Positions 57,411 through 64,000 of a stretch of DNA of 64,000 nt are shown here, piece after piece (the first letter of the stretch is position 1; each line of letters begins with the position of its first letter). The notes beneath the pieces are model-generated. The model was given only the letters and a program-made list of their open reading frames with translations, searched no databases and had not been told where the DNA came from. Source of the DNA: Escherichia coli (GTDB lineage Bacteria; Pseudomonadota; Gammaproteobacteria; Enterobacterales; Enterobacteriaceae). The stretch lies in assembly GCF_016903815.1 (NCBI RefSeq), contig NZ_CP069973.1. One strand, given 5' to 3'. The position numbers and the translations under genes were made by a program.

Positions 57411-60400
57411 ATGAGTGGAAAACCGGCGGCGCGTCAGGGCGACATGACGCAGTATGGCGGTAGCATTGTCCAGGGTTCAGCCGGGGTGCGCATCGGTGCC
57501 CCCACCGGCGTGGCCTGTTCGGTGTGCCCCGGCGGGGTGACGTCCGGCCATCCGGTCAATCCGCTGCTCGGCGCGAAGGTCCTTCCCGGAGAAACCGACC
57601 TTGCCCTGCCCGGCCCGCTGCCGTTCATCCTCTCCCGCACCTACAGCAGTTACCGGACAAAAACGCCCGCGCCGGTGGGGAGCCTCGGCCCCGGCTGGAA
57701 AATGCCTGCGGATATCCGCTTACAGCTGCGCGATAACACACTGATACTCAGTGATAACGGCGGCAGAAGCCTGTATTTTGAGCACCTGTTTCCCGGTGAG
57801 GACGGTTACAGCCGCAGCGAGTCACTCTGGCTGGTGCGCGGCGGTGTCCTGAAACTGGATGAAGGTCACCGGCTGGCCGCACTCTGGCAGGCGCTGCCGG
57901 AAGAACTCCGCTTAAGTCCGCATCGTTATCTGGCGACGAACAGTCCGCAGGGGCCGTGGTGGGTACTCGGCTGGTGTGAGCGGGTGCCGGAGGCGGATGA
58001 GGTGCTGCCTGCGCCGCTGCCGCCGTACCGGGTACTGACCGGGCTGGTGGACCGCTTCGGGCGCACACAGACGTTCCACCGTGAGGCTGGCGGCGAAATC
58101 ACCGGCGTGACGGATGGTGCCGGGCGTCACTTCCGGCTGGTACTGACCACGCAGGCGCAGCGGGCAGAAGAAGCCCGGCAGCAGGCCTCTTCCGGCGGGA
58201 CGGAACCGTCCGCTTTTCCTGATACCCTGCCGGGTTACACCGAATATGGCCGGGACAACGGCATCCGTCTGTCTGCCGTGTGGCTGACGCACGACCCGGA
58301 ATACCCGGAGAATTTACCTGCCGCGCCGCTGGTGCGCTATGGCTGGACGCCACGCGGCGAACTGGCGGCGGTGTATGACCGCAGCAATACACAGGTGCGC
58401 AGCTTTACTTACGATGATAAATACCGGGGCCGGATGGTGGCGCACCGTCACACGGGCCGGCCGGAAATCCGTTACCGTTACGACAGCGACGGGCGGGTGA
58501 CAGAACAGCTAAACCCGGCAGGCTTAAGCTACACGTATCAGTATGAGAAAGACCGCATCACCATCACCGACAGTATGGACCGCCGTGAAGTGCTGCACAC
58601 GCAGGGCGAAGGCGGGCTGAAGCGGGTGGTGAAAAAGGAACACGCGGACGGCAGCGTCACGCAGAGTCAGTTTGATGCGGTGGGCAGGCTTAAGGCACAG
58701 ACGGATGCCGCAGGCCGGACGACTGAGTACAGCCCGGATGTGGTGACGGGACTCATCACGCGCATCACCACACCGGATGGCAGGGCATCGGCATTTTACT
58801 ATAACCACCACAACCAGTTAACGTCAGCCACCGGGCCTGACGGGCTGGAAATACGCCGGGAATATGATGAATCCGGCCGTCTGATTCAGGAAACCGCACA
58901 CAACGGCGATATCACCCGCTACCGTTATGATAATCCACACAGTGACTTACCCTGCGCAACGGAAGATGCCACCGGCAGCCGGAAAACCATGACATGGAGC
59001 CGTTACGGTCAGTTGCTGACCGTCACTGACTGTTCCGGTTATGTAACCCGTTATGACCATGACCGTTTTGGTCAGGTGACGGCGGTGCACCGCGAGGAAG
59101 GGCTGAGTCAGTACCGCGCATACGACAGCCGTGGACAGTTAATTGCGGTGAAAGACACGCAGGGCCATGAAACGCGGTATGAATACAACGCCGCCGGTGA
59201 CCTGACCGCCGTCATTGCCCCGGACGGCAGCAGAAACGGGACACAGTACGATGCGTGGGGAAAGGCCATCCGTACCACACAGGGCGGTCTGACGCGCAGT
59301 ATGGAATACGATGCTGCCGGACGGGTCATCCGCCTGACCAGTGAAAACGGCAGCCACACCACCTTCCGTTACGATGTACTCGACCGGCTGATACAGGAAA
59401 CCGGCTTTGACGGCCGCACACAGCGTTATCACCACGACCTGACCGGCAAACTTATCCGCAGCGAGGATGAGGGGCTGGTCACCCACTGGCACTATGACGA
59501 AGCAGACCGCATCACACAGCGAACGGTGAATGGTGAAACCGCAGAACAGTGGCGGTACGACGAACGCGGCTGGCTGACACAAATCAGCCATCTCAGCGAA
59601 GGCCACCGGGTGACGGTGCATTACGGGTATGATGAGAAAGGCCGCCTGACCGGTGAGCGCCAGACGGTGCATCACCCGCAGACGGAAGCACTGCTCTGGC
59701 AGCATGAAACCAGACACGCTTACAACGCGCAGGGACTGGCGAACCGCTGTATACCGGACAGCCTGCCCGCCGTGGAATGGCTGACTTACGGCAGCGGCTG
59801 GCTGGCAGGCATGAAACTCGGCGACACACCGCTGGTGGATTTCACCCGCGACCGCCTGCACCGGGAAACGCTGCGCAGCTTCGGCCGTTATGAACTCACC
59901 ACCGCTTATACCTCTGCCGGGCAGTTACAGAGCCAGCACCTGAACAGCCTGCAGTATGACCGCGATTACACCTGGAACGACAACGGCGAACTCATCCGCA
60001 TCAGCAGCCCGCGCCAGACCCGGAGTTACAGCTACAGCGACACCGGCAGGCTGACCGGCGTCCACACCACGGCAGCGAACCTTGATATCCGCATCCCGTA
60101 TGCCACGGACCCGGCGGGCAACCGCCTGCCCGACCCGGAGCTGCACCCGGACAGCCCCCTCAGCGCATGGCCGGATAACCGTATCGCCCGTGACGCGCAC
60201 TATCTTTACCGGTATGACCGTCACGGCAGGCTGACGGAGAAAACCGACCTCATCCCGGAAGGGGTTATCCGCACGGATGATGAGCGGACTCACCGGTACC
60301 ATTACGACAGCCGGCACCGGCTGGTGCACTACACGCGGACACAATATGCAGAGCCGCTGGTCGAAAGTCGCTATCTTTACGACCTGCTGGGCCGCAGGGT

Positions 60401-61550
60401 GGCAAAACGGGTATGGCGGCGTGAACGGGACCTGACGGGCTGGATGTCGCTGTCATGGAAACCGGAAGTGCCCTGGTACGGCTGGGACGGCGACCGGCTG
60501 ACCACAATACAGAACGACAGAACCCGCATCCAGACGGTTTATCAGCCGGGGAGCTTCACGCCACTCATCAGAGTTGAAACTGCCACCGGTGAGCTGGCGA
60601 AAACGCAGCGCCGCAGCCTGGCGGATGCGCTTCAGCAGTCCGGCGGTGAAGACGGTGGCAGTGTGGTGTTCCCGCCGGTGCTGGTGCAGATGCTCGACCG
60701 GCTGGAAAGTGAAATCCTGGCTGACCGGGTGAGTGAGGAAAGCCGCCGCTGGCTGGCATCGTGCGGCCTGACGGTGGAGCAGATACAAAACCAGATGGAC
60801 CCGGTGTACACGCCGGCGCGAAAAATCCACCTGTACCACTGCGACCATCGCGGCCTGCCGCTGGCGCTTGTCAGCACGGAAGGGGCAACAGAATGGTGCG
60901 CAGAATACGATGAATGGGGCAACCTGCTGAATGAAGAGAACCCGCATCAGCTGCAGCAGCTCATCCGCCTGCCGGGTCAGCAGTATGATGAGGAGTCCGG
61001 CCTGTATTACAACCGCCACCGCTATTATGACCCGCTGAAGGGGCGGTATATCACTCAGGATCCGATTGGACTGAAGGGGGGATGGAATTTTTATCAGTAT
61101 CCGTTAAATCCGATCTCAGAGATAGACCCACAAGGGTTAAATCCGTTAATTCTTAGTGTTGTAGCACTGATGAGTTGCGGTTTGTTTTCATCAGGTGGTG
61201 TTATCCAAAGTGGGCAACAACGCAGAGATCAATATGGCCGTAAAGTTAATCCAGAAGCCGACAAATTAACAGATGAACATAAGTCAGGTGTAAATCCTGG
61301 TGGTAACTGTAGTCCCCAGAACCTGAGTGACTTACAAAATGAAAAAAACAGATTATGTAACCAGTCTAGAGCTTGCGCTCCTCAGATGCTGAGAAAAGAA
61401 ATATTGAGACGGTACGAGATAAATTTGGCGTGCGCTTCGGTCAGAAAGCAGATTAATAATCAGTGCTTTGGTGGTGGAGATAAGGCCCATATGGAAGAAG
61501 AGAATAAAGCATATAAAACAGCAGCTGATTGCAGTGGCTTAATAAAATGA
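57411..61550 (+). CDS. rhsC: PAAR-domain RHS-repeat polymorphic toxin (RhsC-type, 1379 aa) with a variable low-GC C-terminal toxin tip
   Basis: N-terminal PAAR-like segment ([11 protein letters not shown]...), many YD/RHS repeats ([27 protein letters not shown] and others), core-end motif PxxxxDPxGL (DPIGLKGG...EIDPQGL) at about 61080–61140, then an AT-rich Cys-rich tip of roughly 135 aa. Confidence 0.9.
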
Positions 61551-62050
61551 AAAAAATAATTTTCTCTAACGAGAGTGCAGTCTATGATGAACTTATGATT
61601 CATTTCCCATGCCAGCCATTACCTCATATTTCAAATGATATTACAGGGCTGGAGGAACTGGATATTGTATATAATTTTTTCCAAAAGAAACAATGGAATG
61701 AAATAGCCAACAATTTTAAAATAAAGGATGACTCTTATGCTTTAGAGTTAGGAATTACATTCCTCCCTGAGAAAGTATTCTGCTATTACATCCCTCTGTA
61801 TATTTATGCCTCGTTGTTTAATAAGAATGATTTTTGGGTTTTTGAATCCGATTTTATTCAACAATATTTATGTCCTGAGTATCGGGATCACGATGATTTT
61901 TTGAATTTTGTTTTTAATTTTTCAGATATACAACTATCTATTATTGCACAGTTTATGTCTTATGAATCAGACGCTGGATTCTTTTATGCAAGTAAAGCTT
62001 GTATGGATTTTTGGGAAGATTATTCACCTCTATTACATAAGAAAATTTAA
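61547..62050 (+). CDS. Putative cognate immunity protein for the RhsC C-terminal toxin (167 aa from [10 protein letters not shown]); no family I recognise
   Basis: Start overlaps the rhsC stop (ATGA); strongly AT-rich like the toxin tip; position is canonical for Rhs immunity genes; the track ORF starts 6 codons upstream. Confidence 0.6.
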
Positions 62051-62102
62051 TCGTAAAAGGTATAAATGGTTTAATAAAAAACTTGTCTACTCGTTGGAGT
62101 AG

Positions 62103-62720
62103 ATGAAAAATAAGATGACGTTGGCATATAGATCACTGCGAATAATCCACCTCTACCACTGCGACTATCGCGGCCTGCCGCTGACGCTTATCAGCCCTGA
62201 CGGGGCAACAGAATGGTGCGCAGAATATGATGAATGGGGCAACCTGCTGACTGAAGAGAACCCGCAGCACCTGCAGCAGCTTATCCGTCTGCCGGGGCAG
62301 CAGTATGATGAGGAGTCCGGCCTGTATTACAACCGCCACCGCTATTATGACCCGCTGCAGGGGCGGTGTATCACTCAGGATCCGATTGGGCTGGAAGGCG
62401 GGTGGAATCAGTATGTATATGCTTCCATACATCCAACCTATTCTATTGATCCGCTGGGCTTAATTGATAAACCTGCTCCAGTATTCAATCGAGAACTAAA
62501 TTCAGATGCGTATTATCTTGCCGTAAATAATTGCTATTCATATGCTCTAAATAGGTATGGAAATCCTGGGAGTAGGATTTTTGGCGGCGGAGGATTACAA
62601 CCTGGAGAATTATCTGGAAAAGAGTTTTCTAAACTCACTTGTAGTAGTATTTTTGAAGCGTCAAAAAATGATGGTGCCAAGGACAGGGAAAGATCATCAG
62701 AAGTACACTTTTTGTACTAA
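62103..62720 (+). CDS. Orphan Rhs C-terminal module: conserved core end ([10 protein letters not shown]...DPIGLEGG...DPLGL) plus a distinct short toxin tip of about 85 aa; possibly truncated or pseudogenic
   Basis: About 90% nucleotide identity to the rhsC core end over roughly 260 bp, followed by unrelated AT-rich sequence; lacks the Rhs N-terminus. Confidence 0.65.
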
Positions 62721-62827
62721 ATAATTCGCATTTTATGTTTAAAAATTGAGATATTCCTCATTACCTGAAGCTGTTTTTTATTGCTTATACATGATCAAAT
62801 ACTCCTTACATAATTAAGGAGAACAAA

Positions 62828-63651
62828 ATGGAACTTAAAAAATTGATGGAACATATTTCTATTATCCCCGATTACAGACAAGCCTGGAAAGTGGAACATA
62901 AATTGTCGGATATTCTACTGTTGACTATTTGTGCCGTTATTTCTGGTGCAGAAGGCTGGGAAGATATAGAGGATTTTGGGGAAACACATCTCGATTTTTT
63001 GAAGCAATATGGTGATTTTGAAAATGGTATTCCTGTTCACGATACCATTGCCAGAGTTGTATCCTGTATCAGTCCTGCAAAATTTCACGAGTGCTTTATT
63101 AACTGGATGCGTGACTGCCATTCTTCAGATGATAAAGGCGTCATTGCAATTGATGGAAAAACGCTCCGGCACTCTTATGACTAGAGTCGCCGCAGGGGAG
63201 CGATTCATGTCATTAGTTCGTTCTCAACAATGCACAGTCTGGTCATCGGACAGATCAGGACGGATGAGAAATCCAATGAAATTACAGCTATCCCTGAACT
63301 TCTTAACATGTTGGATATTAAAGGAAAAATTATCACAACTGATGCGATGGGTTGCCAGAAAGATATCGCAGAGAAGATACAAAAACAGGGCGGTGATTAT
63401 TTATTCGCTGTAAAAGGAAACCAGGGGCGGCTAAATAAAGCCTTTGAGGAAAAGTTTCCGCTGAAAGAATTAAATAATCCAGAGCATGGCAGTTACGCAA
63501 TGAGTGAAAAGAGTCACGGCAGAGAAGAAATCCGTCTTCACATTGTTTGCGATGTCCCTGATGAACTTATTGATTTCACGTTTGAATGGAAAGGGCAGCC
63601 ATGGACAGAAACTACCTGACGTCAGTCCTTGCGGGGAGCGGGCTTTCGTAA
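62828..63651 (+). pseudogene. H-repeat-associated (ISAs1-family) transposase remnant with an in-frame TAG and an internal deletion
   Basis: Two track ORFs (62828..63184, 63230..63619) lie in the same frame, separated by TAG at 63182; recalled intact homologs have Lys there. The body ends at ...[11 protein letters not shown] and the conserved C-terminal peptide [16 protein letters not shown] reappears out of frame at 63601..63651. Confidence 0.75.
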
Positions 63652-63736
63652 TCTTGCCCTGCTACAACAGGATTAACTTCACAAATATCATTTCCCAACG
63701 TCTACACTTACTCCTGTAAACCGTTCAGGAGCAGTA

Positions 63737-64000
63737 ATGAATCAGCAACGATTTGATGACAGCACCCTAATCCGTATCTTCGCCCTTCATGAGTTACATC
63801 GACTGAAAGAACATGGCTTAACGCGCGGGGCACTCAACGATTATCACAGCCGCTATAAACTCGTCTTTCTGGCCCATTCCCAGCCCGAGTACCGCAAACT
63901 TGGCCCGTTTGTGGCTGATATTCACCAGTGGCAAAATCTGGATGACTATTACAACCAGTACCGCCAACGCGTAATTGTTTTGCTTTCTCACCCTGCCAAC
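63737..64000 (+). CDS. ybgA: DUF1722-family protein YbgA, 5' portion (runs off the window end)
   Basis: ATG at 63737 preceded by an aggag Shine–Dalgarno; open frame to the window end; identification by synteny and is tentative. Confidence 0.5.
   Translation, partial: MNQQRFDDSTLIRIFALHELHRLKEHGLTRGALNDYHSRYKLVFLAHSQPEYRKLGPFVADIHQWQNLDDYYNQYRQRVIVLLSHPAN

Follow-up and report, generated by a model that had tools for sequence, protein, structure and literature searches.

The window analysed here, a 64,000-nucleotide stretch of an Escherichia coli chromosome, ends within the RhsC region, where the genes follow one another in the order kdpFAB-ybfA, Rhs core protein, small ORF, orphan Rhs tip, H-repeat remnant and ybgA-phrB. 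The H-repeat is a long-known component of the E. coli Rhs elements, and the H-repeats of RhsC were reportedly first described by Zhao et al. in 1993. The Rhs core protein (57411-61550) consists of 1379 amino acids, and the end of its gene is overlapped by a small ORF (61529-62050) that presumably encodes the immunity protein of the main rhs; PGAP annotates its product as hypothetical (WP_000720081.1), and its match to DUF6714 is sub-threshold (Pfam, 23.8 bits with a cutoff of 27). The orphan Rhs C-terminal tip (62136..62720, plus strand), a pseudogene according to PGAP, and the H-repeat remnant come next, and the window closes with the 5' part of ybgA (63738..64000, plus strand), the conserved chromosomal gene that bounds the RhsC element. 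A scan of the region 61000-64000 with Rfam yielded no matches. At least 30 complete RefSeq chromosomes contain the 1021-bp segment 62700-63720 without a single difference; one of them is that of strain 7/2 (NZ_CP023820.1), where PGAP labels the counterpart of 62136-62720 a partial ‘RHS repeat-associated core domain-containing protein' (pseudogene) and that of 62828-63595 ‘ybfD, ISAs1 family transposase; internal stop; incomplete; missing C-terminus'. The feature under study is already annotated and known, namely, as the ybfD pseudogene; intact copies go under the PGAP name ‘ISAs1-like element ISEc1 family transposase'.

The extent of the element can be gleaned from comparison of copies with unrelated flanks. 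Among the remnant, yhhI, ydcC and the O157 copies, homology begins at CAGGGAAAGATC (62684) and stops after TCGTAATCTTGCCCTG (63661), which delimits an H-repeat (H-rpt or ISEc1, ISAs1 family) remnant of 978 bp on the plus strand at 62684..63661, that is, the 1291 bp of the intact copies minus 313 bp. The sequence-only reading had placed the decayed transposase at 62828-63651, a span that holds, although the whole element, with both ends included, is wider. The terminal repeat of the left end (IRL, CAGGGAAAGATCATCAGAAG, 62684..62703, plus strand) falls within the ORF of the orphan Rhs tip, and that of the right end (IRR, with the reverse complement CAGGGCAAGATTACGAAAGC) occupies 63642..63661 on the minus strand. 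Direct comparison shows that this terminal inverted repeat is weak, with 10 of the first 11 positions of the left end matching the reverse complement of the right end, followed by scattered matches; an automated repeat search did not report it, and the two ends have no exact 6-mer seed in common. Both ends are co-linear with those of the 1291-bp copies, and the remnant, at 978 bp, is shorter than the ~1.2-1.5 kb expected of a member of the family. A target-site duplication is absent at the remnant (flanks ...CCAAGGA / CTACAAC...) and also at yhhI and ydcC, so that the insertion history of the examined copies is unreadable from the flanks. Between IRR and the conserved sequence upstream of ybgA, there is an 18-bp spacer, CTACAACAGGATTAACTT (63662..63679), found in each of the five ybfD remnants examined but not in strain GPEC1337, which has no H-repeat at this site.

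Within the element, the transposase ORF (ORF-H, plus strand) carries two lesions. The two separate ORFs found here, 62828-63184 and 63230-63619, had been proposed to represent one frame split only by a TAG codon at a position where intact homologs carry lysine, and both translation and comparison with homologs bear this out: the two starts are both 2 mod 3, and continuous translation of 62828-63619 encounters a single internal stop, the amber codon TAG at 63182-63184 (plus strand), in place of AAG for Lys119. Codon 119 is AAG in yhhI and ydcC (378 amino acids each), in the K-12 ybfD and in strain KKa019. Codons 1-118 (62828..63181, plus strand) encode the complete N-terminal DDE_Tnp_1_assoc domain (PF13808, residues 8-94, E=4.5e-34 in the Pfam search) and the start of the DDE domain with the candidate catalytic residue D109, and codons 120 to about 256 (63185..63594, plus strand) continue in the unchanged frame and include the candidate D172. 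The protein with the amber codon repaired matches the NCBIfam ISAs1 transposase profile NF033564 with a score of 291 bits (cutoff 70; E=8e-87) across profile positions 1-229 of 314, compared with 1-314 for the intact YhhI (378 amino acids), and the Pfam DDE_Tnp_1 profile across positions 3-139 of 200, compared with 3-200 for YhhI. By analogy with the IS4-like DDE_Tnp_1 transposases, the catalytic triad would consist of D109 (AIDGK), D172 (TTDAMG) and E306; a search of PDB sequences found no solved structure of an ISAs1 transposase. Because the TAG codon separates D109 from D172 and the deletion described next removes E306, a product with the full D-D-E triad, as tentatively assigned, cannot be made.

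The second lesion was mapped against the intact K-12 yhhI (RhsB) and ydcC (RhsE), both 1291 bp long, with the K-12 ortholog ybfD as an additional reference. In global alignments, the sequence from 62679/62683 to 63594 corresponds to the 5' 912-916 bp of yhhI/ydcC, and 63595-63661 corresponds to their last 67 bp, with 97% identity in each part; 313 bp of the intact copies (ORF nucleotides 768-1080, amino acids 256-360) have no counterpart in the remnant. The loss amounts to 104 codons plus one nucleotide and hence changes the frame: the body frame terminates at 63619, and the last codons of ORF-H are moved to another frame (63595..63651, plus strand), such that the right end is preserved, with the last 17 codons and the stop out of frame. 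The C-terminal peptide encoded at 63601-63651 (63601 is 1 mod 3) is identical to the last 16 residues of YhhI in 15 of the 16 positions. The sequence-only reading had noticed this peptide in another frame and estimated the loss at roughly 100 codons, or about 300 bp, both of which agree with the translation and with the alignment; the same alignment leaves no full-length ORF in a single frame, and the remnant lacks a single uninterrupted ORF of ~378 amino acids with a complete DDE domain. The lost peptide includes RNHWHVENKLHWRLDV, the HWHVEN...LDV block with the presumed catalytic glutamate, E306.

The deletion junction, 63594|63595 (63593..63596 on the plus strand, given the 2-nt ambiguity caused by the GC microhomology), has the sequence GAATGGAAAGGGC|AGCCATGG. 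The two breakpoints in the intact element fall into the imperfect direct repeats GAATGGAAAGGGC and GATGCGAAAAGC, with 2 nt of GC microhomology, an arrangement that is consistent with slippage or illegitimate recombination. Over the retained 978 bp, yhhI and ydcC are 97% identical to the remnant at the nucleotide level, with the same ends and with the ORF starting at the same distance, 144 bp, from the left end. The differences are that these copies are 1291 bp long, with a 378-amino acid ORF that spans the whole ISAs1 profile, whereas the remnant lacks the ORF nucleotides 768-1080 and, in addition, has the amber codon. The combination of the amber codon with a frame-shifting 313-bp deletion makes this ORF a pseudogene of the ISAs1 family, not a functional member; the alignments to the intact copies and the profile coverage thus uphold the original description of an H-repeat transposase that decayed through an amber codon and an internal deletion.

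The distribution of both lesions was assessed in a set of 5426 genomes. The amber codon was traced with a 41-mer centred on TAG, where a base mismatch prevents megablast seeding, and this 41-mer was found in 96 of the 5426 genomes, in one copy each and always under ybfD. A 40-mer across the deletion junction, in the allele of this stretch, is present in 275 genomes, again single-copy and always at ybfD. A longer query of 221 bp, which runs across the junction and the right end into the ybgA flank, is matched over at least 80% of its length in 3436 of the 5426 genomes, roughly 60%, and in an evenly spaced sample of the rows with such coverage, 23 of 25 consist of one contiguous piece. The counts of the two k-mers, together with the 100% identity of the 1021-bp segment across at least 30 complete genomes that were assembled independently, refute the notion that the amber codon and/or the frame change are sequencing or assembly errors in an intact transposase gene, which has practically no probability given that the TAG allele recurs in 96 genomes and the junction in hundreds to thousands, including K-12 MG1655. 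Hardly more probable is a simple 3' truncation, without any internal deletion, which is what the PGAP note ‘missing C-terminus' implies: it is refuted by the alignment of 63595-63661, at 97% identity, to the final 67 bp of the intact copies, which hold the last 17 codons as well as the stop and the right terminal repeat.

The deletion can be placed in time, at least relative to other lesions, by comparison of the ybfD copies. The K-12 ybfD (b0706, ‘H repeat-associated putative transposase YbfD') occupies the orthologous position, with the right flank and the 313-bp junction identical to those of the remnant, and is 95% identical to it over 1053 bp; unlike the remnant, it has AAG at codon 119, ends at a TAG at codon 254 to give 253 amino acids, and is preceded by ybfQ and ybfL instead of the orphan tip. 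The identical junction and right flank (CTACAACAGGATTAACTT, then CACAAAT...) are found in the K-12 ybfD and in strains KKa019, FDAARGOS_1286 and S19-651, and each of these copies has its own private lesion, namely, TAA at codon 65 in KKa019, a stop at codon 18 in S19-651, an early frameshift in FDAARGOS_1286 and the TAG at codon 254 in K-12. Given that copies with different private lesions have the junction and the right flank in common, we infer that the H-repeat next to ybgA lost the 313 bp only once, long ago, and that most E. coli have inherited this deletion. The amber codon is more recent and specific to one clone. Of the two lesions singled out by the sequence-only reading, then, only the amber codon is lineage-specific; the deletion is not peculiar to the present sequence but common to the K-12 ybfD and most E. 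coli. An undeleted H-repeat with the identical right junction was not found, and deletion in place is thus not demonstrated. The full-length H-repeat upstream of ybgA in O157:H7, which has its own stop at codon 20, was considered as the undeleted ancestor and rejected since its right flank differs.

Comparison of two strains with the same architecture offers a view of the rate at which the element changes. Between the remnant and its counterpart in KKa019 (L007:7245-8222), there are 32 differences in the 978 positions of the H-repeat body, compared with 3 in the 889 positions of the tip and ybgA flanks (Fisher p=1e-6), so that the body diverges ~10 times faster than the flanks, and many of the KKa019 differences are clustered. 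This clustered excess of divergence suggests either gene conversion from divergent paralogous H-repeats or a locally raised divergence.

Two further explanations concern what the remnant might still do. Although the H-repeat is listed as an insertion sequence (ISEc1), its transposition has not been observed (PMC3032704), which already speaks against the idea that intact ISEc1 copies still mobilise the 978-bp element in trans, as a non-autonomous derivative similar to a MITE. Both terminal repeats of the element are intact, and the genomes hold a median of 5 H-repeat places, some of them with intact 378-amino acid ORFs; nevertheless, the junction allele with the 313-bp deletion is strictly single-copy in the 275 genomes that have it, always at ybfD, and all strains examined have one and the same right flank, which makes mobilisation in trans extremely improbable. 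Somewhat less improbable, albeit still very unlikely, is a function of the truncated product, either the 118-amino acid DDE_Tnp_1_assoc protein or the 253-amino acid YbfD of K-12, which might, for instance, regulate or inhibit other H-repeat copies in trans. The 118-codon ORF retains the complete PF13808 domain along with the native start and upstream region, and the remnant has been kept at one site in most E. coli. Moreover, the substitutions private to the present copy comprise 4 non-synonymous and 5 synonymous changes, below the rough neutral expectation (binomial P=0.049), although with only 9 sites this is a weak signal. Against such a function, stops and frameshifts occur at codons 18, about 22, 65, 119 and 254, depending on the lineage, and these independent knockouts indicate that there is no single conserved product; the accelerated divergence of the element body relative to the flanks points in the same direction. 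By far the most probable reading, in which we have high confidence, is that 62684-63661 is the ybfD H-repeat, a non-functional, immobile ISEc1 fossil that marks the distal boundary of RhsC adjoining ybgA.

The remnant also bears on the fate of the neighboring toxin gene. Orphan Rhs tips and their turnover have been described by Jackson et al. 2009 (PMC2935791), who refer to ‘C-terminal displacement', whereby a partial core with a toxin tip lies downstream of the main rhs, as is the case here; unlike those orphans, however, the present tip is truncated inside the toxin domain by the H-repeat and has no downstream immunity gene. The fragment of the core is recognizable in the tip (RHS core profile TIGR03696, E=8e-23). 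The tip ORF (62103-62720) extends 37 nt into the H-repeat, with codon 194 spanning 62683|62684, where the left end of the H-repeat cuts the tip short, and the last 11 codons and the stop of this ORF are provided by H-repeat sequence. This junction of the tip with IRL occurs in 242 genomes. The sequence-only reading had the remnant directly abutting the orphan tip, which is correct, but the remnant does more than that: its left end lies within the tip ORF, and the toxin domain is short by 74 codons.

The full form of this cassette is found in GPEC1337, where a tip that is 100% identical to the present one up to exactly 62683 extends 74 codons further and forms the C-terminal end of a full-length Rhs core protein encoded at this locus. 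The tip is followed in GPEC1337 by an overlapping ORF of 124 amino acids (L005:7452-7826) with a signal-peptide-like N-terminus, MFTKLSIAILLAFSAYVHA, which, judging by its position, is a candidate immunity gene, and there is no H-repeat before ybgA. Compared with GPEC1337, the present stretch lacks 809 bp (L005:7245-8053) and instead contains the 978-bp remnant and the 18-bp spacer. The shortened tip keeps the NNCYSYA motif and, with the 74 last codons of the GPEC1337 allele missing, loses the DYHWY region and does not have a complete C-terminal toxin domain. In the intact form (L005:7001-7826 in GPEC1337, with the 124-amino acid ORF included; compare 62440-62683 here), the toxin domain comprises ~150 amino acids, and the NNCYSYA ... 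DYHWY motifs may form a Cys/His pair. No homolog of the GPEC1337 toxin tail or of the 124-amino acid ORF was found anywhere in the 64-kb window (the best tblastn match for the ORF has E=0.07), and neither the intact toxin tip nor the immunity candidate gave meaningful matches to Pfam or to PDB sequences.

That the remnant may have removed the immunity gene of the tip had also been suggested. The loss itself is supported by the comparison with GPEC1337, whereas the H-repeat may have caused it, a part of the suggestion for which no intermediate was found. In particular, a search with an 869-bp query for an intermediate in which IRR is followed by the rest of the tip gave no match starting at the breakpoint, and the matches to this query fall into three classes only: full (41 genomes), the 3' 359 bp only and the first 60 bp only. 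Likewise, a tip joined to a full-length H-repeat was not found, the chimeric query being at most 87% covered in any record. Of the 809-bp segment, nothing but the last 359 bp (L005:7695-8053) is left in roughly 337 genomes; these 359 bp include the 3' end of the immunity candidate and the spacer before ybgA. This remainder carries no annotated feature and looks like a further state of decay that the cassette reached independently.

The order of events that we infer would start with the H-repeat settling next to ybgA. Slippage or illegitimate recombination between short imperfect direct repeats would then, long ago, have removed 313 bp at once, and with them amino acids 256-360, and shifted the frame. 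Subsequently, the upstream half of the element would have been repeatedly re-joined to differing Rhs-tip and H-repeat sequences; in the present lineage, the complete left end would have become fused inside the orphan toxin tip, with the rest of the toxin and the immunity candidate gone. Finally, one clone (96 of the 5426 genomes) would have gained the AAG to TAG change at codon 119, a further knockout.

The proposed re-joining refers to the left side of the element. Among the five ybfD copies examined, the present one included, there are four kinds of left junctions, and such varied left junctions on a constant right half suggest, as a hypothesis, homologous recombination between H-repeat copies. 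A more far-reaching possibility, which we put forward only tentatively and consider rather unlikely to hold, is that the deleted H-repeat adjoining ybgA serves as a fixed recombination anchor of the RhsC locus. If so, exchange within the 5' part of H-repeat copies would fuse new Rhs tip cassettes to the locus and delete the intervening DNA, the deleted part in this case being the toxin end and the immunity gene, and the excess divergence of the H-repeat body would reflect gene conversion among paralogous copies.

The overall importance of these findings is small, given that they confirm a routine pseudogene call. What is new is the exact map of the deletion, by which the description is corrected from ‘missing C-terminus' to a deletion within the gene, the frequency of either lesion among genomes, and the demonstration that the element truncates a neighboring orphan toxin, the immunity candidate of which is absent. 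The deletion can serve as an ancient marker that the present copy has in common with the K-12 ybfD, and the amber codon as a clone-specific marker (96 of 5426 genomes); the truncated tip with its absent immunity candidate is an example of the involvement of H-repeats in the decay and turnover of Rhs toxin cassettes.

Several observations on the left side of the other ybfD copies complement this picture. In the K-12 ybfD (L002:10960-11095), the first 24 bp of the left end are missing, and the remainder is joined directly to the right end of ybfL. A variant left end, CAGGGAAAGATCACGTAACGCT(G/A)CTTTTTTGTAC, is found in FDAARGOS_1286 (L008:4085-4285) and S19-651 (L009:4087-4287); in S19-651, it comes directly after a ybfQ fragment. 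In the distal RhsC region of FDAARGOS_1286 (L008:855-2472), there is an intact ISEc1 copy adjoining a SymE-family type I toxin gene, and the ybfD remnant with the same 313-bp deletion is preceded by an orphan toxin of the HNH/EndoVII fold, itself followed by an ORF.
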